A stretch of DNA of 64,000 bases from a virus (IMGVR_UViG_3300045988_183134:1-64000); one strand, 5' to 3'; counted from the stretch's first letter, positions 563-60,941 are shown. Program-made: numbers and translations. The notes: generated by a model not told the origin, from the sequence alone.

Positions 563-590
563 TTGCACAGCCGTGCAAATTGCATACAAT
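563..590 (+). promoter_or_regulatory. dyad-box promoter, family copy
   Basis: TTGCAC agcc GTGCAAA ttgca TACAAT; perfect TTGCAC/GTGCAA dyad. Confidence 0.65.
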
Positions 591-933
591 GGGAATTGGA
601 AAACAAAAAGAGCGATGCAAGGCTGTATTTACAAAAAATCCTGTGAGCGTTTTTTAGTATTCATGAAACGACACGAAATTCAACAAAACGCGAAGAGAAT
701 ACAAGAAAAGACGAATGAAATCCGGCTGAGGCGGATAATACTTGTGCCGAGTAGTTTAAAGTCCGGACAATGGGACAGCTAAAGTGGTAAAATAAAACTA
801 GGAATACCTAAAATCAGATTTAACCGAAAAAACAAAAACCATGAATGAATAATTGGTTGCTAAAAAGTAACCGCTCGCTTTTATACCCAAACCAACAAAT
901 GACCCAAATCTGTTTAGGAAGGATAGGCACAAA

Positions 934-3099
934 ATGGCAAGAAGGAAAACAAACGACTTGGAAAATCAGATGTCGCTCATGGACATGATGGCATCGAAAA
1001 GCCCCGAATATACCGAAGAAGGCCCGGAAGAACTCTTGGACCCCGGCGAGGACATGGAGGACAGTGAAGGGCAGACGGATAAGCCCTTCAAACTCGTGGC
1101 GAACAAGACCACGAAGGCAAAGGCGAGCATCTCCACGCAGGCGTTGAGTGTTGTGAAGGCGGTATATGCTGATACGGTCGAAACGAATTGGGAAGAATTG
1201 TTTGACGGGTTCGACAGACTCTATGCTATCACTTTTTCGTCCGGTATCGAGTTCGTGAATAAGGTCATCAACAAGTTCTCGTATGCGGAAGTCGTGTTCG
1301 GATGCGAGAAAATCATCGCCAACGACATTGCTGCCATCATGTCGGTGCAAATCGACAGCGTGCAGCGGCTCGCTAAGTCTAAGTCGGCAGGAAACCTTGC
1401 GAACCGCCTCGATGACGGGTCCTTGCAGCTGTATGTATCGCGGGACACGAAATCGCACGAGAAAATCTTTATCTTGGAGAGCGCTGACCATAAGCGTGTC
1501 CGAGTCATCACCGGCAGTGCGAATATGTCGGCATCGGCGTTTTGCGGCATTCAGCGAGAGAATATCGTCTGCTTCGATGACGAGGCGGCATTTTCGCATT
1601 ACAAGGTTCTGTTCGAGACCTTCAAGGAGACCTGCTCCGACAATGTCTCCTATAAGGCAGTCGTGAACACCATGAACCAGGAAGATTATCTGAAAGAGAA
1701 CATCAAAGAAGTGCCCGTCTTTCAGTCTATTGAAAAGCAGAAGCTTGTCTTTCTGGAACAGGCACAGCCTGAGGATGAGGTCGAATACGAGATAGCTGCC
1801 GATGTCAAGAAAATGCAGGAACTCGTCAAGCCAATCATGCCTAAGATGCCGGTACAGGCGAATCGTATTGTAGTGGCAGCGGAACCGATGCGCGTTTTCG
1901 GGAAACGATATACCGAGGTGCGGCGTGTGGCAGCTGAGGCAGTTAAGCAGCTCCCGAAATTACATATCGACTATGATGCCGGGACCATGACCTTCAACGA
2001 CGAGAATATCGACCTCAATCCGAATCTCAGCGAGGTGGCAAAGAACATCAAGAGCATCCAGAAGTTCTTCTCAGGCATGGACTACTTTTACGGCGATGTC
2101 GAACAGGCCAAGAAGGACTACTTCAAGTACATGACCTGGTATCTGGCTACTCCGTTCATGGCGTATCTGCGGTATTTCGCATCGAGGAACAACTACGATA
2201 CGAAGCTGTTCCCGATGTACGGCGTTATATACGGCGACTCAAACGGCGGCAAGACGACCTTTATAAAATTTCTTGTCAAACTCATGTGCGGTGAGACCGT
2301 TAAGATGAACACGACGGAGGATTTCACAGCCACAAGAATCGACGGCCTCAAACGAGTTTGTGAGGGACTGCCGCTGAACATCGACGACCTCGCCAAGACC
2401 CAGTTTCAGAACCATTCAGAACGGGTAATCAAGAACGATGAATGGGGTATCTCGGACAGGCTCGTGAACTATCCTGCTGTATCTATCACATCGAATAAAA
2501 TTACCTCGCTGACAAAAGACCTCTCGAAACGTGCTATCATCTGTCGAATTGGTGCTAAAATCGACAACGAGCGCGGTGCCAAGAACTCGAAGCGTGTGAA
2601 TGAGAGTATGTCGGAGCTGACAACCGCGTTCTATGGCGAATATGTCCGCCGAATGCTTGTTTGCATCGATGAGATGACGACGGAAATGCGTGAAAATGCG
2701 AATGGCAAGGAATACTTCCCGGATATCTTCCACGCTTCGTCTAGTGTCATTGCAGATATCTTCGAGGCATGCGGAATCGATTTGCCGGACTATGTGCGTA
2801 TCCTGTACTATAACGACTATATGGGTGATGAGAGCATTGGTCGTGCTGCAATTGAGAAAATCGAACTGGCATGGCAGGCTGACCCGAGCAAGTTCCGGGT
2901 CGATAAGAAGCAGAACAGGCTCATTTACTCCTATCCGCCGGATGGACCGTGGTACGAACTGAAATACATTGCAGATGAGCTGCCGAACTCCCTCGAAGCA
3001 GAGATTTCTGGCGGCAACCAGCTTATCATGAACTACGAGCAGGCACAGGAATTGTTCGGCATCAAGTTTCGGCGCTGGCTGGGCATCTTTAACCTCTAA
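934..3099 (+). CDS. PLD-family (HKD) nuclease domain fused to P-loop NTPase (D5/SF3-helicase-like)
   Basis: 721-aa ORF with GGAAGGA RBS; HEKIFIL..GSANMSASAF matches HxK..GSxN; GDSNGGKTT Walker A. Confidence 0.75.
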   Translation: MARRKTNDLENQMSLMDMMASKSPEYTEEGPEELLDPGEDMEDSEGQTDKPFKLVANKTTKAKASISTQALSVVKAVYADTVETNWEELFDGFDRLYAITFSSGIEFVNKVINKFSYAEVVFGCEKIIANDIAAIMSVQIDSVQRLAKSKSAGNLANRLDDGSLQLYVSRDTKSHEKIFILESADHKRVRVITGSANMSASAFCGIQRENIVCFDDEAAFSHYKVLFETFKETCSDNVSYKAVVNTMNQEDYLKENIKEVPVFQSIEKQKLVFLEQAQPEDEVEYEIAADVKKMQELVKPIMPKMPVQANRIVVAAEPMRVFGKRYTEVRRVAAEAVKQLPKLHIDYDAGTMTFNDENIDLNPNLSEVAKNIKSIQKFFSGMDYFYGDVEQAKKDYFKYMTWYLATPFMAYLRYFASRNNYDTKLFPMYGVIYGDSNGGKTTFIKFLVKLMCGETVKMNTTEDFTATRIDGLKRVCEGLPLNIDDLAKTQFQNHSERVIKNDEWGISDRLVNYPAVSITSNKITSLTKDLSKRAIICRIGAKIDNERGAKNSKRVNESMSELTTAFYGEYVRRMLVCIDEMTTEMRENANGKEYFPDIFHASSSVIADIFEACGIDLPDYVRILYYNDYMGDESIGRAAIEKIELAWQADPSKFRVDKKQNRLIYSYPPDGPWYELKYIADELPNSLEAEISGGNQLIMNYEQAQELFGIKFRRWLGIFNL

Positions 3100-3106
3100 T
3101 ATGCAT

Positions 3107-3139
3107 GGCAGGTTCTTTTCGGAGCCTGCCTTCTTATTT
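3107..3139 (+). terminator. intrinsic terminator
   Basis: GGCAGG..CCTGCC hairpin followed by TTCTTATTT, directly after the stop at 3099. Confidence 0.65.
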
Positions 3140-3150
3140 CGCAAAAATAG

Positions 3151-3178
3151 TTGCCCATTTGTGCGAATTGCAGACAAT
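3151..3178 (+). promoter_or_regulatory. dyad-box promoter, family copy
   Basis: TTGCCC attt GTGCGAA ttgca GACAAT. Confidence 0.6.
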
Positions 3179-3261
3179 CAGAAATAAAGCATAAAGCAAA
3201 GGAGCTGAGTACCATCTCAAAATTTGCAAGCAAAAAGTTGATTGAGCGAAATTGGAATATC

Positions 3262-3729
3262 ATGAAAGACTACGGCAACGGCTATTCCATTGAGGAGCTT
3301 GCCGCAAAATACAGGTTGAGCGTCCGTACATGCTATCGAGCGTTAGACGACGCGAAACAGGAGGCCAGAATTCAGTTGGCGCAGGTAGAGGATGCTAGAA
3401 AGGCCGAAATTCTTGCGGCATACAAGAACAGTGTCCCTCTCAAGGAAATGATTGCGAAATTTAACGTGGCAGAAGGATATTGCAGCATGGTTGCCAACGA
3501 TGCGGGCCTGACTGAAAACCGTAGAAATGAGCGCATCAAAATTAGACAAAGACCGCGCAATGAGAATATCTTTCGAGAATATGAGAGTGGCGTACCGGTG
3601 CAGAAACTATCCGAAAAATATCAGCTCTCGGTTCCTGGTATTTACAAGGTTATCCAGCGAGTGAGAAGGCAAAAGGAGGCGATGAGTCTTGCAATGGATT
3701 GTGAAGCAAACCAAATCGAAAGGATATGA
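3262..3729 (+). CDS. tandem-HTH protein (3 HTH repeats), paralog of 36948-38941
   Basis: the track ORF starts inside the promoter, so the first ATG after it (3262) is used; repeats such as YSIEELAAKYRLSVRTCYRAL and VPVQKLSEKYQLSVPGIYKVI. Confidence 0.6.
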   Translation: MKDYGNGYSIEELAAKYRLSVRTCYRALDDAKQEARIQLAQVEDARKAEILAAYKNSVPLKEMIAKFNVAEGYCSMVANDAGLTENRRNERIKIRQRPRNENIFREYESGVPVQKLSEKYQLSVPGIYKVIQRVRRQKEAMSLAMDCEANQIERI

Positions 3730-4360: not shown

Positions 4361-4388
4361 TTGCGAAACTGTGCGAATTGCAGACAAT
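4361..4388 (+). promoter_or_regulatory. dyad-box promoter, family copy
   Basis: TTGCGA aact GTGCGAA ttgca GACAAT. Confidence 0.6.
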
Positions 4389-4427: not shown

Positions 4428-5027
4428 ATGAGCTATGAACCCATTATCACACCGGGCAGGAATTTCTTTCTTGTCTCGACGGAGTACAAAGAGAGCTGCT
4501 CTGCCTGGTGCCGCAAGCAAATTAGAGCGACACTGAGGACCTGTCAGGGACGAGTCATCATCATTGATGCAACGGGCGAGTACGCGGACTTGGCGCTTGA
4601 ACATGACAGATTGATTCGAGAGAAAATCCCGTCCATCATTTATCGGTATAAGCTGGTGGACGGGAAACCGTATATTGCTCATGTCATTGAAGTTGATACG
4701 GAAGCAAATGAAGCACCGCACCTGATTGTATACGATATCAGCCGGACCATAATCACCAGCTGGAAGGTCGGCGTAGAGGCAATTGATAAAATCCTGCAAT
4801 CCTATGCCGTGATGCAGGACAGTGAAATCGCGTGGCTGTATGTTCCGCTGGACTTATATACCAATGTCAAGCCCGAAAGCGAATCCTGGAACATTTTGGA
4901 ACGAACTATCAAGGGTAATGAAGGCAAGCTCATGACAGTACTGACGACTCGCAAATTCACCATTGGGATGGTCCAGCGCTGTTTACATATGGCAAAAATC
5001 AAAAATAATTTGGAGGATAACAAATGA
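4428..5027 (+). CDS. hypothetical protein
   Basis: 199-aa ORF with GAGGA RBS; stop overlaps the next start (ATGA). Confidence 0.65.
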   Translation: MSYEPIITPGRNFFLVSTEYKESCSAWCRKQIRATLRTCQGRVIIIDATGEYADLALEHDRLIREKIPSIIYRYKLVDGKPYIAHVIEVDTEANEAPHLIVYDISRTIITSWKVGVEAIDKILQSYAVMQDSEIAWLYVPLDLYTNVKPESESWNILERTIKGNEGKLMTVLTTRKFTIGMVQRCLHMAKIKNNLEDNK

Positions 5028-5911
5028 CCAATGAACAGCTGAGAATCGCATTGACGGCGAATGCCGTTACCAAACAAACCCGAAACCATTTTGGATTCAG
5101 TGACCCGTGTGGAAAAACGCTGGAAGAATACAACAAGTCCGCGATGCTGTGCTGCATGACAGCGGCGCAGAGAATGAACACGCCGGGTTTTGAGCGTGTT
5201 TTGGCTGCGCAGATTTTTCCCTGCTTTACCATTGGCTGCTGGAATCAGACGAAGACGGTCTATGATTTTGACTACGAGTTTCAGAAAATGCTGATGGATA
5301 CGGATGACGTGGCAATTCATCAGGATATCCTGCAGCGACTCCCGGTTCGTGATTTCTTTATCCCGGTGTATGACAGCTACGACTACAACGGTATGTTCGT
5401 GCATGTGGAATTCGACGAAAAAGAGAAAACCACAGCTTTCGGTATCGTTCTTGTCGGCCCCACTAAGGGCAGCCACGATGATTTCACGTTCCTGACTCTG
5501 CCTGCCTGGGCCAAGGAAAATCAGAGTTTGACGGAAGCAACCCGGAGTACGAAAGAATATCTGGAAAAGGCAGCAGGACAGCGGCAAGTGAACGGTATCA
5601 GTGTTCCGGCCGTAATGGAAGAAGTGCCTTCGGTCTTTGACGACGGAACGCCTTATGTCCGGCTGGCAATCCTGTGCGCCAACTATCTTGCCAGCAAGAA
5701 CCCTGATGTCCGCTTGGAAACTTCCAAAAAGCGTGACCGCCCGGTATTCGTGTTTCAGGGAAAGGCACAGCGCATCAACATTAAACCGTATACCGTTGGT
5801 GAGAATGCGGCCAAAGAATACAAAAAGAATGGGGAAGGCAAACCCCCCCGCTGGCGGCATTACTGGTGCGGCAATGGCCGGGAACGCCGGGAATGCAAGT
5901 TTATTTACTGA
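5024..5911 (+). CDS. hypothetical protein, His/Trp-motif paralog family (copy 1)
   Basis: 295 aa; shares DFF.P..D..Y.GMFVHVEFD, YL.IA...YLASKN and C-terminal RWRHYWCGNGR with 48408-49484. Confidence 0.7.
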   Translation: MTNEQLRIALTANAVTKQTRNHFGFSDPCGKTLEEYNKSAMLCCMTAAQRMNTPGFERVLAAQIFPCFTIGCWNQTKTVYDFDYEFQKMLMDTDDVAIHQDILQRLPVRDFFIPVYDSYDYNGMFVHVEFDEKEKTTAFGIVLVGPTKGSHDDFTFLTLPAWAKENQSLTEATRSTKEYLEKAAGQRQVNGISVPAVMEEVPSVFDDGTPYVRLAILCANYLASKNPDVRLETSKKRDRPVFVFQGKAQRINIKPYTVGENAAKEYKKNGEGKPPRWRHYWCGNGRERRECKFIY

Positions 5912-6777: not shown

Positions 6778-6805
6778 TTGCAAAAAAGTGCAATATCCAT
6801 ATAAT
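6778..6805 (+). promoter_or_regulatory. dyad-box promoter, family copy
   Basis: TTGCAA aaaa GTGCAAT atcca TATAAT. Confidence 0.55.
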
Positions 6806-7499: not shown

Positions 7500-7527
7500 T
7501 TGTCAATCTGTGCGAATTGCGTACAAT
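7500..7527 (+). promoter_or_regulatory. dyad-box promoter, family copy
   Basis: TTGTCA atct GTGCGAA ttgcg TACAAT. Confidence 0.65.
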
Positions 7528-7593
7528 GAAAAATATAAGCCAAAAATATATCTTATCGTTGTCCCGCATGAGTTGATTGTGCGGGACTTTTTT
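7528..7593 (+). terminator. promoter-proximal leader ending in an intrinsic terminator (not homologous to the cassette family)
   Basis: GTCCCGCA..TGCGGGAC hairpin at 7561-7587 followed by TTTTTT, between the promoter and the RBS of 7616. Confidence 0.6.
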
Positions 7594-7827: not shown

Positions 7828-7859
7828 AGGCAGGCTCATTTCGGGCCTGCTTGTTTTTT
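7828..7859 (+). terminator. intrinsic terminator
   Basis: AAGGCAGGC..GCCTGCTT hairpin followed by GTTTTTT; same stem type as the cassette terminators. Confidence 0.65.
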
Positions 7860-7868: not shown

Positions 7869-10064
7869 ATGATTACAACAAAGAAGATTGACCCACGGCC
7901 ATATCAGCAGAAAGCTGCTGCGGCGATTCATAGAGAGTGGGATGCCGGGAATAAGAAAACGCTGGTTGTGATGCCGACCGGAACCGGCAAAACTATTGTG
8001 TTTGCAAGCATCGTGAACGACCAGGTGGCAAAGGGTGAACACGTTTTGATTCTTGCGCACCGGGAAGAGCTTTTACAGCAGGCAAGCGACAAGCTCAAGA
8101 TGGTGACGGGGCTAGAGACCGCGTTAGAGAAAGCGCAAAGCTCGGCGCTCGATTCCGATAAGATGGTCGTGGTTGCCAGTGTTCAGACTCTCTCTAAGCA
8201 GAATCGGTTAATGAAGTATCCGCGTGATTATTTCGGGACTATCATCATTGATGAAGCGCATCACACGGCAGCCAAAACTTACAAGGGAATTCTCGAGCAT
8301 TTCATCGATGCCAAAGTGTTGGGCGTGACCGCAACACCCGACCGAAGCGACATGAAATCCCTATCTGATATCTTTGATAGTCTTGCATTTGAATATAAGC
8401 TCCCGGATGCAATTCGGGAAGGATATCTCTGCAAAATTAACACGAAGACAATTCCGGTCGAGGTAGACATCAGCAAGGTTCATATCAATGCCGGTGATTT
8501 CAGTGCTCAGGACCTCGGCAATGTTCTTGACCTGTATCTGGACACGATTGCGGATGCCATTGTGCGAGAATGCCAGAACCGAAAGACTGTCATCTTTACG
8601 CCTCTGGTACGAATCAGCAAAAGACTGTGTAATATCCTCAATAAGCGAAACTTCAAGACCGCAGAAGTCAACGGCGCGTCTGCGGACCGGAAGGACGTTC
8701 TGAAAGGGTTTGACAATGGCGAGTACAAGGCGCTGACGAACGCGATGCTCCTGACGGAAGGCTGGGATTGCCCGACCGTTGACTGTATCATCTGCTTGCG
8801 TCCTACCAAGAGCCGTAGCCTGTATGCGCAGATTGTGGGACGCGGAACACGCCTATGTGAAGGGAAAAAGAATCTTCTCGTGCTGGATTTCCTGTGGCTG
8901 ACAAAGAAACATAGTCTTTGCCATCCTGCTGATATTTTCTGTGAAGACCCGGAAGTGGCACAAAAGACCACCGATATGCTGGCGGATGCGGCACTCACCG
9001 GTTCGAATAGCCAGGAGAATTTCGGGAGTCCCGAATTGGGGCTGATTGAGGCAATCGAGGAAGCACAGACTGAGCTGGACGAGGAAAAGCGGAAAGCACT
9101 GTGTGAACTCGAAAAGCAGGATACGATTCAGCGCAAGCTCAAGGCACAGCGTCAAAAGCCGAGAGGATTGGTTGACCCGCTGCAGTACATTTTCAGCATC
9201 GAAGCGCCGGAACTCAACGATTATCAGCCGATGTTTGAGAGTGAGAGGCAGGAGCCTTCCGATGACATCATCGATAGTATTTCGTGCTACGGCGTAAAAG
9301 GGGATGCCATCAAATCTCAGGGCCTTGCCGCTGCAATTCTCAAACGACTCATTGCTCGCAGAGCCAGCGGAATGGCTACCCCGAAACAGATTCGGTGTCT
9401 TGAAAGTTTTGGGTTCGTCCATGTTGGGCGCTGGACATTGCGCTATGCAAGCAGCTTTTTGGACATCATCAGTTCTCATGACTGGAAACTTCCGAATGGG
9501 TTCGACGCATCCACGCTGGACCCGGAAAAGAATACGGCAGAAGACCTCGCCAAGCTGTATCCAGACTACAAGGAAGATGAGACGAAGAAAGCACCGCGTG
9601 GGGATGCTTTCATCTGCTGCTACTACGATGCAAGCTACAATTTGGCTCGCAAGAAGGTCTGCAACAGTGAAAAAGAAATGTTGAATCTGTATTATTCACT
9701 GTTCAATACTTGCGAAGCAAAGTACTTCTATTATACGAAGGAAGCTGATGCCTGGATGGCAGAAAAGCAGAATCTAATTGCCAGAAAGACTGGAACACCG
9801 ATTCCTGCCGCACAGCCGACTCAGGCAACACCCGCAGTACCTCCTCCCTTTGTCCCGACAGCTCCCGCTAAGAGCCACGAATATTATTGCTGCCTTGCCC
9901 GATGGGATGGGTCCTACATTGGCTATGAGATTTACAAGAGTGAGCAGGCAGCTCAGAATGCCCGAAAGCAGATTGCCCGGCGCGGTGAGACGGCAGTGTA
10001 TGCCACAGTAGAGGAAGCCGAAGCGTGGGTCGAACAACAGAAGGCGGCAAGAACCAGGAGGTAA
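7869..10064 (+). CDS. SF2 DEAD/DEAH-box (ResIII-type) helicase with a C-terminal extension
   Basis: MPTGTGKT Walker A, IIIDEAHH motif II, GVTATPDR motif III, VGRGTR motif VI; 731 aa. Confidence 0.9.
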   Translation: MITTKKIDPRPYQQKAAAAIHREWDAGNKKTLVVMPTGTGKTIVFASIVNDQVAKGEHVLILAHREELLQQASDKLKMVTGLETALEKAQSSALDSDKMVVVASVQTLSKQNRLMKYPRDYFGTIIIDEAHHTAAKTYKGILEHFIDAKVLGVTATPDRSDMKSLSDIFDSLAFEYKLPDAIREGYLCKINTKTIPVEVDISKVHINAGDFSAQDLGNVLDLYLDTIADAIVRECQNRKTVIFTPLVRISKRLCNILNKRNFKTAEVNGASADRKDVLKGFDNGEYKALTNAMLLTEGWDCPTVDCIICLRPTKSRSLYAQIVGRGTRLCEGKKNLLVLDFLWLTKKHSLCHPADIFCEDPEVAQKTTDMLADAALTGSNSQENFGSPELGLIEAIEEAQTELDEEKRKALCELEKQDTIQRKLKAQRQKPRGLVDPLQYIFSIEAPELNDYQPMFESERQEPSDDIIDSISCYGVKGDAIKSQGLAAAILKRLIARRASGMATPKQIRCLESFGFVHVGRWTLRYASSFLDIISSHDWKLPNGFDASTLDPEKNTAEDLAKLYPDYKEDETKKAPRGDAFICCYYDASYNLARKKVCNSEKEMLNLYYSLFNTCEAKYFYYTKEADAWMAEKQNLIARKTGTPIPAAQPTQATPAVPPPFVPTAPAKSHEYYCCLARWDGSYIGYEIYKSEQAAQNARKQIARRGETAVYATVEEAEAWVEQQKAARTRR

Positions 10065-10645: not shown

Positions 10646-11098
10646 ATGATTCGAGTTAAGAAAGAGAACCACCGTAGTTGGTTCATGAGCAACTATTATC
10701 CTTGCGAATTTGTGATGAATGGGATTCGCTACAAGAACGCTGAAGCAGCGTTTCAGAGTCACAAGGTCCCACTGGAAGAGCGCAGACAGTTTGCGGACAT
10801 GCCACCGGCTTCTGCCAAGCGCTTTGGCCGCAATGTAGCTATCCCCGCAAACTGGGACAAAACTCGGGACGATGTAATGCGCCGCGTGGTGATGGCTAAA
10901 TTCGAACAGAATGAAGACCTCAAGCAGCGTCTCCTCGAAACGGGTACGCAGCCCATCGAGGAAGATACCACCAGCTGGCATGACAATTACTGGGGCGACT
11001 GCCATTGCCCGAAATGCCAGAACATCCCAGGTCAAAACCGGCTTGGAACTATTCTGATGGAAACGAGGGATAAATTGAAAAAGCAAGCTGGCAAATAA
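10646..11098 (+). CDS. NADAR (YbiA/DUF1768) family ADP-ribose-processing protein
   Basis: ATG after AGGAG; SNYYPCEF..YKNAEAAFQ..and E.TSWHDNYWGDC..GQNRLG.ILM motifs typical of NADAR. Confidence 0.8.
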   Translation: MIRVKKENHRSWFMSNYYPCEFVMNGIRYKNAEAAFQSHKVPLEERRQFADMPPASAKRFGRNVAIPANWDKTRDDVMRRVVMAKFEQNEDLKQRLLETGTQPIEEDTTSWHDNYWGDCHCPKCQNIPGQNRLGTILMETRDKLKKQAGK

Positions 11099-11210
11099 TA
11101 CTTGCAATGGCTTGCGAGTCCCATATAATTAGAAACGTAATCAAAAAGAACTATCTTTTGCGAGGACTCCGTTGCCGACGGCGTTCTCGTTTTCTTTTGT
11201 TCAAACGCAA

Positions 11211-11251
11211 AAGGCTGCCGCCCAGTAATGGGTAGCAGCCTTATTTTTTTT
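11211..11251. terminator. bidirectional terminator between convergent genes
   Basis: AAGGCTGC..GCAGCCTT hairpin flanked by an A-run and a T-run. Confidence 0.65.
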
Positions 11252-11302: not shown

Positions 11303-13189
11303 TCATTGCACGATTTCGCCCAGGTCATTTGCGTATTTCGGGTCACACATCATGAAGTAGTTGACGGGGCCGTACTCCAGACCGAGCTCCTGCGCGTATG
11401 CCTTGATAGTTTCCAGAACGTCCTCTTTCTTGAGGCCAAACTTGGAATGCAGACGGGCAAACTCTTTGTCAGAGACAGAAACGCAAGAGCAATTTTCTGC
11501 ATCGGTTTCTTTGCTGCCCAGCATCCCGTCAAAGATGTCCTGCCCTGCACAGAGAATCGTCTCATTGTTCATCGCATAGGCGATAACGGAAGCCTTACAG
11601 TCAAAGTCGCTGTCTTCCACAAGGAAATCCTCAGGGCGGCCGTGACGTTCAACAACGTTTTCATAGATGTCCCGGAGTTCGATAGGAGCAGAAGGAGCGG
11701 TCAGCGCTGCTTTATGAAGGCGCATGAATTCCACAAACTTTTCATCCGAGAGGGTATCGGTATAAAAGCCGATGCCGGAAACGCGAACCTTCACTTCGCT
11801 GGCAAAGTAATCGTCAATTTTGGAGACGATTTTCTGCTGAACCCGCTTGTACGCTTCCTGAACATTGGAAGCCGTGTAAAATACCGGGAACTTCATGATG
11901 TCGATTCCCTCCGGCAGACTCGCGTCATAGGCCGCATCAATGCCGCCTCGCAGCGCCGGAACCGCGTCATGCAGCTCTTTCACAGAAGAAATGTATCCGG
12001 TAATGTACAGCTCATCGTTTTTGCTGTAATGCCCGATAAGTCCTACATAGAGAGTCTGCATCAGCATCCGCTTGAAGCTGAACCAACAAAGACGAATGGG
12101 TAGAATGACATTAGCAGCCGTACCTTCCGCACGATAGGTGCCGGGGGCAGAGACCTTTTCCAGCAGAATCTGGTCGTTCTTGTCACCGTATTTTTCCTTG
12201 AAAAGAGCTTGAAGAATTTCAGTGGACGAAAGAGGAGTGGACATTGGAATCGTTTCATTCAGAAAAGAGAGGAATGCATCCACGTTGTCTTTCTGCCATG
12301 CGTCATCAGACATGCTTGCACGCTGCATAGAGAGCTTGTCTTTCCCGTCGTCAGGCAAGGGCTTATACCCACAGGCGATACGAAGCTCGTTCTCCGTGAC
12401 AGCATCCGTTGCGCTTGCAATTTTCTTGATGGTATTCTCGGTCGGCTGAGCTTTCGCGTTGCCGTTCGCAAGGTTACTGATATATCCACGAGTCAGCCCC
12501 GCTTGAAACGCAAACTTGCCCTGTGTGCGGGTTCCAATGGCTTTTTTGACCAGCGATGCCAGCCTTTGAAAGTCGGGCTCTTTGGGAAAGGTGGCCTCCG
12601 TATCCTTATTGCTGTTCTTTTCAAGTACCGACTTGTCCCAACCGGTGACAAGAGAATACCCAATATCCTTCAAGGATTGATAGGCAACCCCGTTCTGGTC
12701 AAGAGCCGGGGAGTAAATACCGCTGTTATCTTCCAGCTGCTCTACTGCCTCACGCATCATCCTTGCTTCGTTCATCAGGATGACGTCCGGGGCTTCAAGC
12801 CGGGCAAGACTCTTGTACCGATTATTGAGGCGCTCGACTCGTGCGGCCAATGCAGTGATGTTGGCAACTTGGTCTTCCGTTGCATGGGCAGAGATATCTG
12901 CACCAAGTTCAAAATGGTTCAGTGCAGGAATATCCACGCCTTTGCTCTTGGCGAATTCCACAATGGCTTCCGCGCCATAGAAACGCTTCTCATGGGCTGC
13001 GACAACTTTCGTTATCGTGTCGGCCGAGTTGTCCAGCTCAAGCACTTCACCTTTTCCGGCATCCTCGACATAACACCTGGCGTTGGTGAGAAAGCCTTTC
13101 AAAAAATCAGCATCCACATCCAGCTTCTTAGCGATGTCGGGCAGCTGCTTATAGAAAATCACGCGCGTGGCGAGGTTAACAGAAATCAT
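11303..13189 (-). CDS. large protein with a central XRE-type HTH
   Basis: 628 aa, AAAGGAG RBS; HTH KFAFQAGLTRGYISNLANG; one of three minus-strand genes, divergent from the operator region. Confidence 0.8.
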   Translation of the reverse strand: MISVNLATRVIFYKQLPDIAKKLDVDADFLKGFLTNARCYVEDAGKGEVLELDNSADTITKVVAAHEKRFYGAEAIVEFAKSKGVDIPALNHFELGADISAHATEDQVANITALAARVERLNNRYKSLARLEAPDVILMNEARMMREAVEQLEDNSGIYSPALDQNGVAYQSLKDIGYSLVTGWDKSVLEKNSNKDTEATFPKEPDFQRLASLVKKAIGTRTQGKFAFQAGLTRGYISNLANGNAKAQPTENTIKKIASATDAVTENELRIACGYKPLPDDGKDKLSMQRASMSDDAWQKDNVDAFLSFLNETIPMSTPLSSTEILQALFKEKYGDKNDQILLEKVSAPGTYRAEGTAANVILPIRLCWFSFKRMLMQTLYVGLIGHYSKNDELYITGYISSVKELHDAVPALRGGIDAAYDASLPEGIDIMKFPVFYTASNVQEAYKRVQQKIVSKIDDYFASEVKVRVSGIGFYTDTLSDEKFVEFMRLHKAALTAPSAPIELRDIYENVVERHGRPEDFLVEDSDFDCKASVIAYAMNNETILCAGQDIFDGMLGSKETDAENCSCVSVSDKEFARLHSKFGLKKEDVLETIKAYAQELGLEYGPVNYFMMCDPKYANDLGEIVQ

Positions 13190-13201
13190 GGTGTACTCCT
13201 T

Positions 13202-13323
13202 TCAAATATGTCATTTGCTGTATAATAATGTCATCTTCTGTAATTATAATAGCACATCTCGTACTAAAAAGCAAGCATGAATTTACAATAAATGACAATA
13301 AAATACACAAGATGACATATTTG
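13202..13323. promoter_or_regulatory. divergent control region: two ~39-bp inverted repeats carrying four A(A/G)ATGACAT operator-like sites
   Basis: ATGTCAT at 13208 and 13228, ATGACA(A/T) at 13292 and 13312, 20-bp spacing in each pair; minus-strand TTGCTT-17-TATTAT lies between them. Confidence 0.6.
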
Positions 13324-13426
13324 GGCAAAGCGGTTGATTTCCGAGCCTTTGCTACCCCATGACGGAACGTGCCCTGTGCGTCTTGTCTATGCCACAGTTT
13401 TGTCACGGCTTTGCCATATTTTTGCC

Positions 13427-13454
13427 TTGTGCATCCGTGCGAATTGAATATGAT
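13427..13454 (+). promoter_or_regulatory. dyad-box promoter, family copy
   Basis: TTGTGC atcc GTGCGAA ttgaa TATGAT. Confidence 0.55.
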
Positions 13455-13513
13455 GGGAAATATAAAATAAATAAGTGTAAGCCGCAGAGGATAGGTTTCT
13501 GCGGCTTCTTTTT
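13455..13513 (+). terminator. promoter-proximal leader ending in an intrinsic terminator
   Basis: AAGCCGCAG..CTGCGGCTT hairpin at 13479-13507 followed by CTTTTT. Confidence 0.6.
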
Positions 13514-15852: not shown

Positions 15853-16905
15853 ATGGCAAAGAACGATAATTTGCATAAGGCGAAGGATGCGAAGAATGAT
15901 GAGTTCTACACCAGAATTGAGGATGTCGCTGAAGAACTGCGGCACTACAAGAAGCATTTCGCAGGCAAGGTTGTATTCTGCAACTGTGACGACCCCACTT
16001 GGTCTGCTTTCTGGCGGTACTTTCACCTGAACTTTGCAGAACTTGGCTTAAAGAAGCTGATTTCCACGCACTATGACCGTACCGAACCAACCTACAAGAT
16101 GGAGTACGAGGGCGGGAATGATAATGATGTGGAAGTCGGTGTAAAAACCCCGCTGGAAGGCAACGGCGATTTCCGGAGCAAGGAATGTCTCGACTTGCTG
16201 GATGAGTGTGATATTGTGGTAACCAATGAGCCGTTCAGCTTATTTCGCGAGTATGTTGGTACACTGATGCAGCACGGCAAAAAGTTCCTGATTATCGGGA
16301 ATAAGAACGCCATTACATACAAAGAGTTTTTTCCACTTCTGAAAGAAAACAAAGTGTGGATTGGCTATAGCTCACCTTCCGAGTTTGATACCCCAAATGG
16401 AATGACCAAGAAAATCAACGGTCTAACAAGATGGTTCACCAACCTCGACATCCAGAAGCGCCACGAGAAACTGATTCTTTGGCAGCGGTACTATGATAAT
16501 GACGGAAATCCTATGCCGGATGCGAAGGAGAGGTATCCGCATTACGATAACTATGATGCTATCAATGTGGGCAAGGTTGCTGATATTCCAATTGATTATC
16601 AAGGTGTAATGGGTGTGCCGATTACGTTCTTGGATAAGTATAATCCTGAACAATTTGAGATTGTTGGACTGTTAAATTCAAGCAGCGAATCATTAGCAGG
16701 TATTAAGGAACTCAGAATTTATGATGAATTCAAAGAAGTAAAACAAGACGGCTCATTTACAAAAGCAACTGGAAAAAAGACGAGAGGAAATCCCGTAATA
16801 AATGGAAAAGCTAAAAGCGGAAATTACTATATAAATCCAAATACTGGAGAATGTGTACATTCTACTTATGCACGCATTCTTATTCACAAAAAGGAAAATG
16901 AATGA
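15853..16905 (+). CDS. EcoRI-methylase-family N6-adenine DNA methyltransferase
   Basis: ATG after GGGAGAT; N-terminal DEFYT box and VVTNEPFSLFREY (NPPF-like catalytic motif). Confidence 0.75.
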   Translation: MAKNDNLHKAKDAKNDEFYTRIEDVAEELRHYKKHFAGKVVFCNCDDPTWSAFWRYFHLNFAELGLKKLISTHYDRTEPTYKMEYEGGNDNDVEVGVKTPLEGNGDFRSKECLDLLDECDIVVTNEPFSLFREYVGTLMQHGKKFLIIGNKNAITYKEFFPLLKENKVWIGYSSPSEFDTPNGMTKKINGLTRWFTNLDIQKRHEKLILWQRYYDNDGNPMPDAKERYPHYDNYDAINVGKVADIPIDYQGVMGVPITFLDKYNPEQFEIVGLLNSSSESLAGIKELRIYDEFKEVKQDGSFTKATGKKTRGNPVINGKAKSGNYYINPNTGECVHSTYARILIHKKENE

Positions 16906-17663
16906 TGGCAGAATATGATGTATTTATTTCCCACGCCAACGCTGATAAAGAACAATTTGTTGAAGAATTGTATAAATCTTTTCAAAAACTTGGAATTAAG
17001 ATTTTTTACGATTCTGATTCAATTGAGTGGGGCGACGATTGGGCATGCAAAATTCAGGATGGATTGGCAAAATGTCGTTACGGCGTTATTGTTATCTCAA
17101 ACAATTTTTATGATAGAGAGTGGACTGAAAAGGAATTAAAATCTCTATTGGTACGTCAAAACGATAATGGTGAAAATGTAATTTTGCCGATTTTATATAA
17201 CACTAACATTGATGAACTCAAGAAACACTGCAAAAGAGGATGTTATAAAGATTTAGCAAAAATTCAATTTATCAATAAGGAAGAGGTCGATGTTAAAGAC
17301 ATCACAATCCTTCTTGCCCGTAAACTACTCAAAGACAGCCGCATTGCAAATTCAACGGTACAAAAGTCCAAAGACAATAAAGCTATGTTTGACAATTTTT
17401 TTGAAAAAAACAATAGTATTGATTTTTATAGATGGCTTGACAGTTTGATTAAAAGCAATAACCAATGGAGCGATGGTTACCCTAATGACTTTATTGGCTG
17501 GCATCTCTTTAAGTATAATGGTAAATCAATTGCATTGATACAGGAGCAAGAGGACGAAAGTAATCCTTATGATAATTATATCAATTGTCAATATCGTATC
17601 AATCCGATATATTATAGCGATTTCTGTAAATACTTTGAAACTTATATTCGTCCACAGATGTAA
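16902..17663 (+). CDS. TIR-domain protein with an uncharacterised C-terminal domain
   Basis: YDVFISHANADKE..GIKIFYDS..W..I..GL..C.YGVIVIS..F..REW.EKEL; start overlaps the methylase stop (ATGA). Confidence 0.8.
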   Translation: MMAEYDVFISHANADKEQFVEELYKSFQKLGIKIFYDSDSIEWGDDWACKIQDGLAKCRYGVIVISNNFYDREWTEKELKSLLVRQNDNGENVILPILYNTNIDELKKHCKRGCYKDLAKIQFINKEEVDVKDITILLARKLLKDSRIANSTVQKSKDNKAMFDNFFEKNNSIDFYRWLDSLIKSNNQWSDGYPNDFIGWHLFKYNGKSIALIQEQEDESNPYDNYINCQYRINPIYYSDFCKYFETYIRPQM

Positions 17664-17677
17664 AGGAGACTACACCT

Positions 17678-19305: not shown

Positions 19306-19449
19306 AAAGATTCCTCCGACAGTTATGTAGTATCATTTCATACATATATTATACATGTATTCTATACCGTTGGCCAAGCTGCTAGGTCGTTATTTTACAA
19401 AAAAATTCAAAAACAGGAGCCGTTCATACCACAGGAAAGCCTGCGGGTT

Positions 19450-37983: not shown

Positions 37984-37987
37984 TTGC

Positions 37988-45807: not shown

Positions 45808-45835
45808 TTGCAGATGTGCAAAAACATGGTATAAT
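45808..45835 (+). promoter_or_regulatory. promoter related to the dyad-box family (shifted box)
   Basis: TTGCAG at GTGCAAA aacatgg TATAAT. Confidence 0.45.
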
Positions 45836-46818: not shown

Positions 46819-46906
46819 GCTTGCTTGTTCGAGTGGTTGATGAAATCGGTCCAGAAAACCGACGATGGGAGACTGTCCGAAGGTTCGAATCCTTCAGCAA
46901 GCGCCA
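46819..46906 (+). tRNA. class II Ser-like tRNA with loop CCAGAAA (anticodon AGA, C33)
   Basis: perfect acceptor GCTTGCT/AGCAAGC, TCGGT/ACCGA stem, long variable arm, G73; CCA encoded. Confidence 0.55.
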
Positions 46907-47265
46907 CTGCCCTCATTCTGTGCGGTATCCGTGCAGGTGAGGGCTTTTTCTTTTGCTTTTCGCTTCGAATTTCGGACTCGAATGGCGTTAATGGTCGGAT
47001 ATTCTTGATTATACATGCCTTTGCTGTATGGCAAATAGCTCCAAACAGTATTGGTTTTTACACCCAATTCTTCTGCAATTTCAGGAACTGACATACCGTT
47101 CGCACGCAGCTTCCCGATTTTTTCTGATGTTTCATCTGACCATGCCCCGGCTGTAATCAGTATTTTGCGCACTTTCTGCAATGAGATGCCTGCACGTTTG
47201 GCAATGGTTCTTCTAGGTATACCTTGCTCATGGAGCCGGAGAACCGTCTGCATTGTCGCGTCCAT
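46894..47265 (-). CDS. tandem-HTH protein (2 repeats), minus strand
   Basis: IPRRTIAKRAGISLQKVRKIL and SVPEIAEELGVKTNTVWSYL; the C-terminal tail runs through the terminator and 13 nt of the tRNA. Confidence 0.65.
   Translation of the reverse strand: MDATMQTVLRLHEQGIPRRTIAKRAGISLQKVRKILITAGAWSDETSEKIGKLRANGMSVPEIAEELGVKTNTVWSYLPYSKGMYNQEYPTINAIRVRNSKRKAKEKALTCTDTAQNEGSGAC
46909..46949. terminator. terminator at the end of the tRNA array, shared with the convergent gene
   Basis: GCCCTCA..TGAGGGC hairpin followed by TTTTT. Confidence 0.65.
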
Positions 47266-47430: not shown

Positions 47431-47459
47431 TTGTGAGAAATTGCGAATCGCGGTATAAT
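47431..47459 (+). promoter_or_regulatory. dyad-box promoter, family copy (17-nt spacer)
   Basis: TTGTGA gaaa TTGCGAA tcgcgg TATAAT. Confidence 0.55.
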
Positions 47460-48407: not shown

Positions 48408-49484
48408 GTGGATAATATCATTGTGAACAGTGCTCTCTGGTATGCCGAGCAGAGCAGTCAATTTCTTGCGAATTCTGGGGCCAACAAGCTGCTGGATAAA
48501 GGCTATGACTACTATGTAAGTGAATTTATTCCGCTTGGGCACCGCCTTATCCAAAATGGTCAAATTGCTGCCAATGCGATGGATGGAGAGCTTGCCGCAC
48601 AGTTCTCGATGGCATACGTTGCAAACTATTGGCGTGCAGCAAAAACCGTATATAATTTTGCGCCGGAGTTTCTCAGAACATTGGCTGAGACTGAGGACGC
48701 ACCTATTTATTCTGACATTATGATGCGGTTGCCATACAGAGATTTTGTCATGAATCTGCCCACTGGCTCTCATCATGATGCGATGTTCGTACACATTGAA
48801 TTCGATGCTTCCCACGGGCCAAATGATGTGGATACGCTCTTCCTGATTGTTCCTTTTAAGGCGAACCCGAATGTCGATAACATCGAACTTTGCCAGTGCA
48901 TGCAGTGGTGTCTCAACGGCAAAAAGCTGATTGAATCTTATCGGCGCAACAATGATGCTCGCGAGCAGGCATTTCAGAACGGAACTGATTCTGCAACTGT
49001 CAATGACGCCACGGTTTCAAACGTACCAGGTGCCGTTCTCAGCGAGGAAGAGCTGCAAAAGCAGCGAGAATTCAACGCCGGTATTGAGCCGTATCTTCGT
49101 ATCGCGGTCTCTGCCGCTTATTATCTTGCATCAAAAAACGCAGAAATCAAAGAGGTAAAAATCCCGAAAGAGAAGCGGCCCGTCCTTGTTTCCAAACCCG
49201 GTGCTACTCCTAAAAAAGTAAATGTCAAAACTTACAATGTGGGCTTTGTAATCGGCAAGAGCTTTGAAATGCAGCTGGTTTCCGGTGCAGAATATCAGAA
49301 ATCCACAGCAACTGGCACAGGCCGTACGGTCAGACCACATGTCCGCCGTGCTCATTGGCACCACTACTGGGTTGGAGAAGGTCGAACTCGCTTAGAAGTC
49401 CGCTGGATTGAGCCAACTTTTGTGCTGCCGGAAGGGAAACGTGAGATAAAAATTGCAACAGTAAGACGCGTCATGGGCACTTAA
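48408..49484 (+). CDS. hypothetical protein, His/Trp-motif paralog family (copy 2)
   Basis: GTG after GAGGTGG; RPHVRRAHWHHYWVGEGRTRLEVRWIEP near the C-terminus. Confidence 0.7.
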   Translation: MDNIIVNSALWYAEQSSQFLANSGANKLLDKGYDYYVSEFIPLGHRLIQNGQIAANAMDGELAAQFSMAYVANYWRAAKTVYNFAPEFLRTLAETEDAPIYSDIMMRLPYRDFVMNLPTGSHHDAMFVHIEFDASHGPNDVDTLFLIVPFKANPNVDNIELCQCMQWCLNGKKLIESYRRNNDAREQAFQNGTDSATVNDATVSNVPGAVLSEEELQKQREFNAGIEPYLRIAVSAAYYLASKNAEIKEVKIPKEKRPVLVSKPGATPKKVNVKTYNVGFVIGKSFEMQLVSGAEYQKSTATGTGRTVRPHVRRAHWHHYWVGEGRTRLEVRWIEPTFVLPEGKREIKIATVRRVMGT

Positions 49485-50041: not shown

Positions 50042-50069
50042 TTGCACGAATGTGCGAACCGCCTAAAAT
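50042..50069 (+). promoter_or_regulatory. dyad-box promoter, family copy
   Basis: TTGCAC gaat GTGCGAA ccgcc TAAAAT. Confidence 0.6.
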
Positions 50070-50170
50070 AATAATTGCATAACAGATACCATCACTTACC
50101 TCCTAACTGAACATTAACAATCTGTCATGCTTGTAAGCAGACTCTCTTTTGAGGGCCTGCTTCTTTTTTT
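50070..50170 (+). ncRNA. structured RNA cassette, family member
   Basis: GCATAACAGATACCA box pairing with ATCTGTCATGC, ATTAACAATCTG box, terminator AAGCAGACTCTC..GAGGGCCTGCTT followed by T7. Confidence 0.6.
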
Positions 50171-51278: not shown

Positions 51279-51324
51279 ACGATGCCTGTTGGGGCTGGCT
51301 GCATGTGCGGACCAAGCAAAACAT

Positions 51325-51392
51325 CTACTGCACGATAGAATAAATCGTGCAAACAAAGCAGACTCTCAATTCTTGAGGGCCTGCTATTTTTT
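51325..51392 (+). ncRNA. structured RNA cassette, short family member without a convincing own promoter
   Basis: GCACGATAGAATAAATCGTGC hairpin, terminator AAGCAGACTCTC..GAGGGCCTGCT followed by ATTTTTT; the upstream GTGCGGA box has a poor -10. Confidence 0.5.
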
Positions 51393-51973: not shown

Positions 51974-52001
51974 TTGCACATCCTTGCGAATTCCATAGTA
52001 T
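51974..52001 (+). promoter_or_regulatory. dyad-box promoter, family copy
   Basis: TTGCAC atcc TTGCGAA ttcca TAGTAT. Confidence 0.55.
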
Positions 52002-52110
52002 TAAAGTTGTACGACAGATAACATCTACTTGGCACGCCGCGTGCTCGTACAATTCATAATTCTGTTCTCATTCAAGGCAGACTCATCTTCATGATGGGCC
52101 TGCCTTTTTT
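52002..52110 (+). ncRNA. structured RNA cassette, family member
   Basis: TTGTACGACAGATAACA box, GTACG/CGTAC helix around GCACG-CCG-CGTGC, ATTCATAATTCTG box, terminator AAGGCAGACTC..GGGCCTGCCTT followed by T6. Confidence 0.65.
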
Positions 52111-56639: not shown

Positions 56640-56667
56640 TTGCGGATTTATGCGAACGGCCTATAAT
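56640..56667 (+). promoter_or_regulatory. dyad-box promoter, family copy
   Basis: TTGCGG attt ATGCGAA cggcc TATAAT. Confidence 0.55.
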
Positions 56668-56770
56668 CAAAAATGTACGATAGATAACAGATATCGAAAA
56701 GGCATCCTGCCCTTCGCACACTTAACAATGCGCTTTAGGCGAACTTCCCATTTGGGCGGTTCGCCTTTTT
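56668..56770 (+). ncRNA. structured RNA cassette, family member
   Basis: ATGTACGATAGATAACA box, GAAAAGGCA/TGCCCTTC hairpin, CTTAACAATGCG box, terminator AGGCGAACTTCCC..GGGCGGTTCGCCT followed by T5. Confidence 0.65.
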
Positions 56771-58187: not shown

Positions 58188-58215
58188 TTGCACAAATGTG
58201 CGACTCTCTTAAAAT
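58188..58215 (+). promoter_or_regulatory. dyad-box promoter, family copy
   Basis: TTGCAC aaat GTGCGAC tctct TAAAAT. Confidence 0.6.
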
Positions 58216-59748: not shown

Positions 59749-59941
59749 TATTATTTGGGTCGTTGTGTTTCTCTGCGTTCTCATCGCGTCCTGCTTTGGA
59801 ATGTACTATTTCCAGGGTGAGAACAAACAAAAATTTGTGTTTTGCTTTTTGCTGGTAGCATTATCTTTTGGAGTTCTTGCGTTTCGACTCCTGGATATTG
59901 CCTACACAATGATAAACGCAGCTGTCAAAGCCGCACAATGA
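59741..59941 (+). CDS. small membrane protein
   Basis: 66 aa, ATG overlaps the previous stop; two TM segments. Confidence 0.5.
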   Translation: MADIIWVVVFLCVLIASCFGMYYFQGENKQKFVFCFLLVALSFGVLAFRLLDIAYTMINAAVKAAQ

Positions 59942-59943
59942 CC

Positions 59944-60004
59944 TTTTTGCAATTCTCAAACTGTTTTTTTGGCAGACCTTCCAACCGAGGGCCTGCCCTT
60001 TTTA
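59944..60004 (+). ncRNA. partial cassette (3' half only) acting as an inter-gene terminator
   Basis: AATTCTCAAACTG box, then GGCAGACCTTCC..GAGGGCCTGCC followed by CTTTTTA; no promoter or 5' box. Confidence 0.5.
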
Positions 60005-60025
60005 TTGTTGCCAGGAGGAAAATCT

Positions 60026-60907
60026 ATGAAAATCCGATTCTATACAACCAACAAGGAAGCTATTGTATTCGACCTTGAGGATATTTTGAAGCAGCTCAAC
60101 ATTGAAGAGCAGGTAGCCACTGTCGGTCTTGTCATTGAAAAAGACGAGGCCGAGGTTGAGGCAATCGCTCAGACAATACAAGACGATTATCCGAACATGT
60201 ATCTCCAGGCAAAAGAATACGGACGGAATCTGACCTTGGCTTGTGCGGAGCTTCCGAACCCTACTAACCCAGATATTGTAACCTACCTCTATGCGGGCGA
60301 TGATGCTACGGAAACTGACAGTTGGATTGCGAAAGTGAACAACACAATTCGTGCGCAAGGGGATAACAGTGAACGGCTCATCCATATTGACTCGAATCTC
60401 GCTGCCGTGGTAGAAGCAAACGAAACGGAACAAGGATACTATGCTTCCACCGTGTCGCAGCATGACAAGGCCACAAACGAAATGCTGAGTTTTCGACAGA
60501 TTGCAGAGTCGTTGGAAGCTGTTGGGGATAACTACAAGTACCAGAGCGCAAGCAACATTCTGACTGCAAGAACCAAAGCAGAGCGGAACTATATTGTCCG
60601 GCTTATCAAGATGTATTGCGACGATACTAAATACCTTGCTGGTTCTATGCCGCAAAGTGAGAACCCGTTCTGTGTCCAGAACGTTGACGCTCTGAACCAG
60701 CGCGATGCGCAGTGGTCCGAAATCAAAGAGTATCTTGCACAGGACGAGAATCGCAACAAGCTGGATGTGATTCTTGGCTTCGTGCCGGATGAGGAGAGCG
60801 ACAAGACTCTAATTCTGCGCAGCATTGAAGAAAAAGGGAAGGCCATGTCTGATTCTGAAATCGAAAAAGCATATAATTTGCTGTTTGGTGACTGTAGCAA
60901 TGGATGA
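60026..60907 (+). CDS. hypothetical protein
   Basis: ATG after AGGAGGAAA; 293 aa. Confidence 0.65.
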   Translation: MKIRFYTTNKEAIVFDLEDILKQLNIEEQVATVGLVIEKDEAEVEAIAQTIQDDYPNMYLQAKEYGRNLTLACAELPNPTNPDIVTYLYAGDDATETDSWIAKVNNTIRAQGDNSERLIHIDSNLAAVVEANETEQGYYASTVSQHDKATNEMLSFRQIAESLEAVGDNYKYQSASNILTARTKAERNYIVRLIKMYCDDTKYLAGSMPQSENPFCVQNVDALNQRDAQWSEIKEYLAQDENRNKLDVILGFVPDEESDKTLILRSIEEKGKAMSDSEIEKAYNLLFGDCSNG

Positions 60908-60913
60908 ATAATC

Positions 60914-60941
60914 TTGCGCTTTCGTGCGAGACCCGTATAAT
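60914..60941 (+). promoter_or_regulatory. dyad-box promoter, family copy
   Basis: TTGCGC tttc GTGCGAG acccg TATAAT. Confidence 0.6.

Follow-up and report, generated by a model that had tools for sequence, protein, structure and literature searches.

Promoters of one design recur along a 64,000-nucleotide stretch of viral DNA (IMGVR_UViG_3300045988_183134:1-64000, hereafter the window), each combining a -35 TTG(c), a constant 16-bp spacer and a -10 TAcAAT with a short heptamer, (G)TGCGA(A), that lies inside the spacer at about -25 to -19 of the inferred transcript start. Here we describe this heptamer, which we call the box, and the transcription units that it marks. We hold with good confidence that a sequence-specific protein, probably encoded by the phage, binds the box and from there acts on RNA polymerase at one defined class of promoters. 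More tentatively, the box may be where a processive antiterminator of the Q/AlpA type loads, a reading that we favor because only it also explains the order of promoter, terminator and gene in many of these units and a -10-like hexamer close to their start.

The promoter family and its spacer box

A first-pass annotation of the window had listed about 23 copies of the pattern cTTGCAC-N4-GTGCGAA-N5-TAcAAT, and these resolve into 21 sites in a fixed register and two shifted variants on the same + strand, one at 47431-47459 (TTGTGA-gaaa-TTGCGAA-N6-TATAAT, with a 17-bp spacer) and one at 45808-45835 (GTGCAAA displaced by 2 nt). A 31-nt weight matrix spanning the -35 to the -10, trained on the sites and iterated to convergence, scores the 21 sites at 23.8-37.5 bits, and all nine of the sites that had been given as examples are among them. 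The family is sharply delimited, with best non-member scores of 6.7 bits on the + strand and 11.9 bits on the - strand. The number of sites exceeds the shuffled expectation, as had been proposed: 100 dinucleotide shuffles gave a mean of 0.33 matches at 12 bits or more (maximum 3). A regular expression independent of the training found 17 sites on the + strand and 0 on the - strand (0.34 expected), and a scan for TTGCAC-N4-GTGCGAA with up to two mismatches returned 13 matches against 2.3 expected. The predicted strand and intergenic bias is also present, since on a gene map self-trained on codon usage, which defines coding and non-coding sequence in the window, all 21 sites are on the + strand, intergenic and upstream of + genes, non-coding sequence making up 18% of the window. 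The original view of the sites as a sigma-A-type promoter family holds. The transcript start was placed at the purine 8 nt past the -10, and the box contributes about 12 bits of information over its seven positions; a literature search on GTGCGAA as a promoter element found nothing relevant.

Conservation was examined in a non-redundant set of 52 promoters from the window and related contigs, whose promoter and leader sequences are more than 20% different from one another. The core of the box, TGCGA, carries 1.8-2.2 bits per position, its T, C and A being present in 52/52 promoters and its two G in 51/52 and 50/52, while the ends of the heptamer are looser (first G 41/52, last A 38/52). On either side the sequence is far less constrained, at 0.07-0.72 bits per position in N4 and 0.4-1.0 in N5. 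In the -35, TTG is kept in 50-51 of the 52, and positions 4, 5 and 6 are almost free (0.75, 0.13 and 0.18 bits), so that the full hexamer TTGCAC occurs in 11/52. These figures do not agree with the claim that each promoter carries a 16-bp dyad formed by the -35 and the box. Complementarity between the two averages 3.3 of 6 pairs; the mutual reverse complementarity that had been pointed out is perfect at 563-578, the one such case in 52, and is not conserved across the set. Position 6 of the -35 and position 1 of the box show no covariation, changes to TTGCGAA or ATGCGAA being unmatched in the -35. GTGCGAA is in any case not the full complement of TTGCAC, the near-invariant G at box position 5 being the base that breaks the symmetry. 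Two readings of the box had been offered, a dimeric helix-turn-helix (HTH) operator and a Q-type element. The first is left unsupported because the conserved element is asymmetric, with no conserved two-fold half-sites. We also rejected an alternative 11-bp dyad, TGCGA-A-TTGCA, made of the box and N5, whose right half is 58-77% conserved and changes at the neutral rate among orthologues. An asymmetric box fits a monomer-type reader.

Paralogous copies of the promoter have diverged freely in N4, N5 and -35 positions 4-6, with the box remaining fixed. Orthologues were compared among relatives that are 90-99% identical, counting minimum changes and leaving out promoters that had been retrieved with the seed pattern, which would introduce an ascertainment bias. 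Substitution densities were 6/84 in the box, 5/72 in the -35, 5/72 in the -10 and 23/108 in N4 plus N5 (box versus N4 plus N5, Fisher p=0.008), with 0.16-0.19 changes per site and promoter in the flanks. By these comparisons the spacer box is selected for itself, and the earlier statement that the spacer is not a neutral one stands.

We regard as quite improbable a reading that dispenses with a phage factor, in which host RNA polymerase or a host regulator reads the box (compare the Spo0A boxes of phi29) or the box reflects mere copying of a cassette. Promoters, leaders and terminator stems are visibly paralogous, as copying would have it, and a decayed copy of the cassette lies between two genes at 51290-51390, its -35 and -10 lost, its box changed to GTGCGGA, and its leader start TGCACGATAGAATAAA and terminator (51358-51384) still in place. 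The fixed register needs no functional cause either, and is weak evidence of function because any shift needs two compensating indels. Copying alone is, however, excluded because the box is invariant where N4, N5 and -35 positions 4-6 have diverged, and because its rate of change among orthologues is low. As for a host reader, a longer pattern that includes the upstream TTG had 0 matches in a collection of 185,579 bacterial and archaeal genomes, one per species, and the phage's own tRNA promoter lacks the box. Nor is the box a Spo0A box, the consensus of which is TGNCGAA: to bring (T/C)GTGCGAA into line with it needs an indel, and no register fits. When box and leader were compared by eye with the consensus sequences for Spo0A, LexA (Cheo), cre, CRP/FNR and Rex, none fitted.

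In the collections searched, the box design occurs only in a single clade of large phages from the human gut. IMG/VR contains more than 113 exact copies of the 18-mer GTGCGAATTGCRTAYAAT, and almost all of them lie in contigs from the human gut, 27-346 kb in length and mostly 90-99% identical to the window; the copies are one-stranded in all loci but two. We found no relatives with a variant box, an exact search of IMG/VR with GAACGATAGATACCA, one form of the leader motif, returning only box-bearing copies and chance matches, and a megablast of the window against GenBank phages gave no match. One window protein has close homologues on contigs of 226-228 kb. The host is probably a Firmicute, because the helicase encoded at 7869 is closest to helicases of Faecalibacterium and Streptococcus phages (about 50% identity) and the promoters are of the TTG/TAnAAT type. 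The 9 kb upstream of the window hold three more box promoters and a divergent region where the arm begins, and one more box promoter was met further away, those found being always co-oriented with the genes that follow; the upstream walk met no recognizable late genes within the stretch covered. In related loci, the array of boxes extends beyond the right end of the window.

Five promoters in the window have no box in the fixed register (20277, 20901, 41737, 45808 and 47431); the first-pass annotation had named 20901 and 41737, the promoter of a tRNA array, and the box is indeed missing from both. This box-less class follows the design TTGnnn-16/17-TGGTATAAT, with an extended -10 (TGGTATAAT or CGGTATAAT) and 16-17-bp spacers, whereas among the box promoters the TG does not occur, the spacer is 16 bp throughout and TAcAAT is the preferred -10. 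What had been described as a box marking a specific regulon is, in these terms, a box marking a class distinct from the TGGTATAAT extended -10 promoters. Upstream of the tRNA genes, 41927-42007 is an above-threshold match (47.9 bits) to RF02682, a hepatitis delta virus (HDV)-like ribozyme family (HDV-F-prausnitzii), and ends 4 nt upstream of the tRNA-Thr gene (42012) that heads the 17-tRNA array on its box-less promoter. A tRNA-like gene at 43436-43511, with an anticodon unreadable by ARAGORN ('ca' at position 35), could encode an unusual or suppressor tRNA.

The presence of two distinct designs, one with a 16-bp spacer, no TG and TAcAAT and the other with a 16-17-bp spacer and TGGTATAAT, speaks for a specificity element, in which a phage activator, a sigma-remodeling pair or an alternative sigma factor would read the box (and possibly the adjoining TTGCA / CATACAAT) and so guide polymerase to a 'middle' class, the TGGTATAAT promoters being the true early ones. 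Five Mor/C-like HTH paralogues in the window also accord with it, and one form of the -10 region, GCATACAAT, looks similar to the -10 consensus of Bacillus subtilis sigma-E. Yet activator-dependent promoters normally lack a good -35, and here TTG is kept in 50/52. The center of the box, at about -22, falls on the path taken by the beta' zipper and sigma region 3, away from the positions of MotA (-30), of Mor/C (-33 to -51) and of class II activators. The window showed no domain of the sigma region 2, MotA or AsiA kind, and the promoters of what are presumably the earliest small genes have the box as well. We consider a specificity element unlikely.

Predicted leader terminators, proposed read-through and the start-proximal hexamer

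Ahead of the first gene, 12 of the 21 window promoters are followed by a predicted intrinsic terminator, consisting of a GC-rich hairpin (dG of -12 or stronger) and a T-run, with dG values of -13.3 to -28.4 kcal/mol in the window; in the non-redundant set the share is 24/52. When 19 diverged leaders were aligned (RNAalifold), the terminator hairpin was the sole consensus structure, with compensatory changes in 7 of its 11 pairs.

The arrangement of these units, all on the + strand, is often such that no gene could be reached without passing a terminator. The promoter at 7500-7527, with a predicted transcript start of TATAAG, is followed by a leader terminator at 7561-7587 (dG -17.0) and a second at 7829-7851, before the helicase gene at 7869, so that two terminators separate this operon from its only promoter. 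At 11102-11129, the promoter precedes two tandem leader terminators (11160-11241; dG -17.2 and -21.5) and then an opposite-strand gene, 11303-13189(-), to which read-through would be antisense. The promoter at 23679-23706, with the conserved leader TGTACGACAGATATCA at 23713-23728, would yield a leader only: behind its terminator (23751-23786; dG -21.9) there is no gene until the next promoter, 23785-23812, whose -35 region is overlapped by that terminator's T-run and which has no leader terminator of its own. Further leader terminators follow the promoters at 13427-13454 (13480-13506; dG -16.4), with a -10-like TAAAAT at 13463-13468; at 24775-24802 (24824-24862; dG -28.4), with a -10-like TAAGAT at 24811-24816 and a gene for a 906-aa helicase behind the terminator; and at 36808-36835 (36896-36931; dG -14.6), upstream of three tandem-HTH paralogues (36948-38941).

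The remaining terminator-bearing promoters share a conserved leader. They are 31814-31841, with the leader TGTACGATAGATAACA at 31848-31863, a TACGAT at 31850-31855 and a terminator at 31914-31949 (dG -24.4); 51974-52001, with box TTGCGAA, leader motif at 52008-52023 and terminator at 52074-52106 (dG -18.5); 56640-56667, with box ATGCGAA, leader motif at 56674-56689 and terminator at 56738-56765 (dG -18.0); and 60914-60941, with box GTGCGAG, leader motif at 60948-60963 and terminator at 61010-61038 (dG -21.6). Degenerate forms of the leader stand at 30530, behind 30496-30523 (box ATACGAA; terminator 30576-30610, dG -25.5), and at 50076, behind 50042-50069 (terminator 50136-50161, dG -13.3).

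The promoters that open directly onto genes, also on the + strand, have equally recognizable boxes. That at 563-590 (TTGCAC-agcc-GTGCAAA-ttgca-TACAAT; matrix score 36.5) is the sole perfect dyad, and it has no leader terminator, nor do those at 3151-3178 (37.3), before the tandem-HTH (Mor-like) gene 3262-3729, at 4361-4388 (36.9), at 6778-6805 (box GTGCAAT; 26.0) and at 23158-23185 (33.2). The promoters at 21583-21610 (ATGCGAA; 26.5) and 21890-21917 (GTGCGAT; 23.8) have variant boxes, as has 58188-58215 (GTGCGAC), where a 21-nt leader runs directly to the ribosome-binding site.

Terminators are not limited to leaders. Seven further strong ones lie between genes behind box promoters, at 7829, 13896, 15803, 34205, 38944, 46029 and 51358, with a start codon 17-37 nt past each that leaves no room for a promoter, and an eighth promoter-less terminator, at 20327, lies behind the box-less promoter 20277. 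Given the order of promoter, terminator and gene, much of the arm would need terminator read-through, whether by leakiness or by antitermination.

The conserved leader begins about 8 nt past the -10 at seven window promoters, and at many in relatives, with the motif (T)GTACGAyAGATAmCA. A second motif, ATTCACAaTT, comes 25-40 nt after it and precedes the terminator, the stem of which keeps GGCGGAC/GGCAGAC. Here it is sequence rather than structure that is conserved, which would fit a protein site. As a structured RNA (GTACGATAGATAmCA...ATTCACAaTT), the leader was tried and set aside: RNAalifold supports the terminator only, a 5' stem GUACGA/UCGUAC being available in a subset, and Rfam has no match to the conserved leader. 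Other terminator-bearing units start with TATAAG, TATAAAAT or AATAAGAT. A hexamer of the form nAnnnT (TACGAT, AACGAT, TAAGAT, TAAAAT) occupies +2 to +7 in 15/24 of the terminator-bearing units and in 2/28 of the rest (p=2e-5); when the AGATA-type leaders are excluded the ratio is 4/8 against 2/25 (p=0.02), with a background of 7%. As the sign of a pause-like element, this association with terminators is suggestive rather than proven.

We can now set out what loading of an antiterminator at the box would entail, an account in which the start site, the pause, the factor itself with its identity, and read-through are all deduced from sequence. The cassettes would be the standard transcription starts of one genome arm in a large uncultured gut phage. 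A phage-encoded, sequence-specific protein would load at the box DNA and board RNA polymerase at the promoter, and the loaded polymerase would become resistant to terminators in the manner of Q-lambda or AlpA, at dozens of promoters instead of one. As long as the factor was absent, terminator-less promoters would express their genes at once and terminator-bearing ones would give only terminated leader RNAs of 40-110 nt; once it was present, polymerase would read through both the leader terminators and the promoter-less intergenic ones. The core looks activator-independent, with TTG kept in 50/52 and a separate box-less class in the window, and we count this in favor of such a scheme. It is thus the Q-type element, among the two readings first offered, that finds support, in leader terminators at 12/21 promoters, in the hexamer at +2 to +7 and in an AlpA-like position of the box.

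Several observations weigh on the other side. An equally good box without a leader terminator is found at 9/21 promoters in the window and 28/52 in the non-redundant set, where the hexamer falls to 2/28, and it is hard to see what a pure loading site would do at such promoters. Pfam scans of about 84 predicted window proteins detected no antiterminator domain, whether of a Q family, of AlpA or of another kind. The Q/AlpA systems known so far each serve a single promoter per element. The register of the hexamer was picked post hoc, and the leaders are paralogous, so that the events behind its p values are not independent. The terminators could also simply be leaky, or yield to a factor of the Xp10 p7 or P23-45 gp39 type, which works without a DNA site.

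Boxes at terminator-less promoters are what a repressor operator would predict. The spacer between -35 and -10 is a classic position for steric repression, and a phage protein, perhaps a monomeric tandem-HTH paralogue, could occlude polymerase there and switch off an entire early or middle set of promoters together, the terminators forming a separate layer of control. A box at every promoter of the class, with or without a terminator, fits such a class-wide switch, as do cores that look activator-independent; the HTH operons at 3262 and 36948-38941 lie behind box promoters, as in negative autoregulation, and mycobacteriophage L5 sets a precedent for a multi-copy, asymmetric, orientation-biased site read by a monomer (PMC9283540). 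We nevertheless judge a repressor unlikely: it leaves unexplained both the read-through that over half of the units need and the start-proximal hexamer, and no repressor was identified among the window proteins.

Antitermination from the box, in its fullest form, is possible yet doubtful. It would amount to a distributed Q/AlpA-like system that serves the greater part of one genome arm in a large phage of a gut Firmicute, in which more than 30 promoters share a 6-7-bp box, many of them with a pause hexamer and a leader terminator, in which the antiterminator is unrelated in sequence to known Q families and possibly a tandem Mor-type HTH protein, and in which the leader terminator is all that separates immediate-early from delayed-early units. 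Should our favored reading be right, Q-type antitermination would not be confined to the lambdoid late promoter and a few Pseudomonas loci, and would serve, with a new protein family, as a genome-wide timing device in a prevalent human-gut phage lineage with Gram-positive-type transcription. Even under the rival explanations, the box would be a handle for annotating transcription units in this uncultured clade, for fishing out the regulator by DNA-affinity methods and for building tightly co-regulated sets of synthetic promoters in gut Firmicutes.

Candidate factors and other genes of the window

Five window proteins are paralogues, each a tandem series of 2-6 HTH modules that belong to the Mor/C, resolvase or sigma-region-4 type; they are encoded at 3262-3729, 36948-37475, 37465-37983 and 37988-38941 on the + strand and at 46894-47265 on the - strand. 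They match PF08765 (E down to 2e-12) and PHROG families annotated as 'late transcriptional activator'. Two of their operons stand directly behind box promoters, and the gene at 46894-47265(-) is divergent from the variant promoter 47431. In an AlphaFold model of the 3262-3729 product (pLDDT 83), single HTH modules resemble Mu C, Mor and NarL. A Foldseek search with this model gave no significant match in the PDB and none resembling Q21, AlpA or Q-lambda, which counts against an antiterminator of those types, and a homologue search found only close relatives (at least 85% identity over the full length). The tandem-HTH proteins are plausible readers of the box, though nothing ties them to it. 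In all, Pfam and PHROGs scans of the window proteins, AlphaFold with Foldseek, and homologue searches assigned no factor.

The gene at 11303-13189(-) encodes a 627-aa protein in which residues of about 110-160 (nt 12710-12862), NITALAARVERLNNRYKSLARLEAPDVILMNEARMMREAVEQLEDNSG, align to the clamp helices of the bacterial RNA polymerase beta' subunit (Escherichia coli beta' 264-311; best E=3.5e-7, with more than 70 beta' chains matched), the coiled-coil on which sigma region 2 chiefly docks. The same protein has an HTH_3 domain at residues 221-268, and may be a sigma-binding decoy or tether; it had no match among GenBank phages, and no analogue turned up in a short search of the literature. Upstream of its gene, at 13190-13330, there are four copies of ATGTCAT / ATGACAT, which look like operators for its own HTH_3 domain.

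Likely counter-defense or defense-like genes are found at 5024-5911, 48408-49484, 15853-18814 and 10646-11098. The products of 5024-5911 and 48408-49484 are paralogues, the first with a precomputed AcrVA2-like Pfam match, and the defense-like cluster also includes an EcoRI-type adenine methylase, a TIR-domain protein, a GmrSD-N plus HNH protein and a NADAR protein. The 731-aa helicase (7869-10064) is replaced in two relatives, L209 and L210, by an RRXRR-HNH protein in one and a 94-aa open reading frame in the other, with an IS605-type TnpB gene inserted near the divergent region in both. About 470 nt at 19400-19870 contain no convincing open reading frame and many complementary GC-rich runs; this region had no Rfam match at E up to 1, and could be an unclassified structured RNA.

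Comparison with known systems

The location of the box between -35 and -10 recalls promoters of the MerR type, where a protein site lies in the same interval; there the sites are dyads in 19-20-bp spacers, whereas here the site is asymmetric and the spacer 16 bp. Phage Mu is brought to mind by the five window proteins with Mor/C-type HTH modules. The Mor/C dyad, however, lies at about -33 to -51 and overlaps a defective -35, and the box is asymmetric, in the spacer and behind an intact -35; the promoter logo has no conserved element upstream of the -35. In T4, the MotA box is centered at -30 and replaces the -35 (PMC6755090). T4 middle promoters, which depend on sigma appropriation by MotA and AsiA, are similar in that a phage-specific box joined to a host-type -10 sets apart a numerous temporal class, the promoters of replication and accessory genes, and different in that the box here is centered near -22 with the -35 TTG kept in 50/52, and in that the window proteins include no Pfam matches to MotA or AsiA.

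The stoperators of mycobacteriophage L5 are multi-copy asymmetric sites that follow the orientation of transcription and lie mostly outside promoters (PMC9283540). In common with L5 and its cluster A relatives, the phage described here has more than 20 asymmetric copies in short intergenic regions, oriented with transcription (here 21/21 on the + strand); the reader of the L5 site is a monomer that has two DNA-binding modules. Unlike the box, stoperators are 13 bp long and block elongation from positions mostly outside promoters, where all the boxes are within the -35/-10 interval in a fixed register. L5 is also temperate, with an immunity repressor, and here no lysogeny module was seen in the window and no prophage copies were found, there being no match in bacterial genomes.

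Closest to our favored reading are the Q and AlpA systems. Q-lambda is a monomer on its asymmetric DNA site, Q21 occupies direct repeats as a dimer, and the pause element of lambda is AACGAT. A Q cassette is defined as a promoter, a sigma-dependent pause element, a terminator and genes (PMC9388147). The AlpA element in the alpB promoter of Pseudomonas aeruginosa is an asymmetric 6-bp GGGACG at -25 to -20, between -35 and -10, and is read by one HTH monomer; PalpB also requires a -10-like CACGAT at -1 to +5 and has an intrinsic terminator downstream (PMC9371919). The phage cassette, known from sequence alone, differs in being present at dozens of promoters per genome instead of one, with nearly half of them having a box and no terminator or hexamer, and in its host, probably a Firmicute. 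The window, 64 kb of a roughly 225-250-kb genome, encodes no Q21 (PF06530), Q-lambda (PF03589), Q82 or AlpA proteins. What the systems have in common, judged by position and conservation, is a short asymmetric element inside the promoter (-25 to -19 for the box, -25 to -20 for AlpA), possibly a -10-like hexamer close to the start (AACGAT in lambda, CACGAT in PalpB and TACGAT, AACGAT or TAAGAT here, counted from an inferred start), and an intrinsic terminator ahead of the genes, with more terminators downstream.

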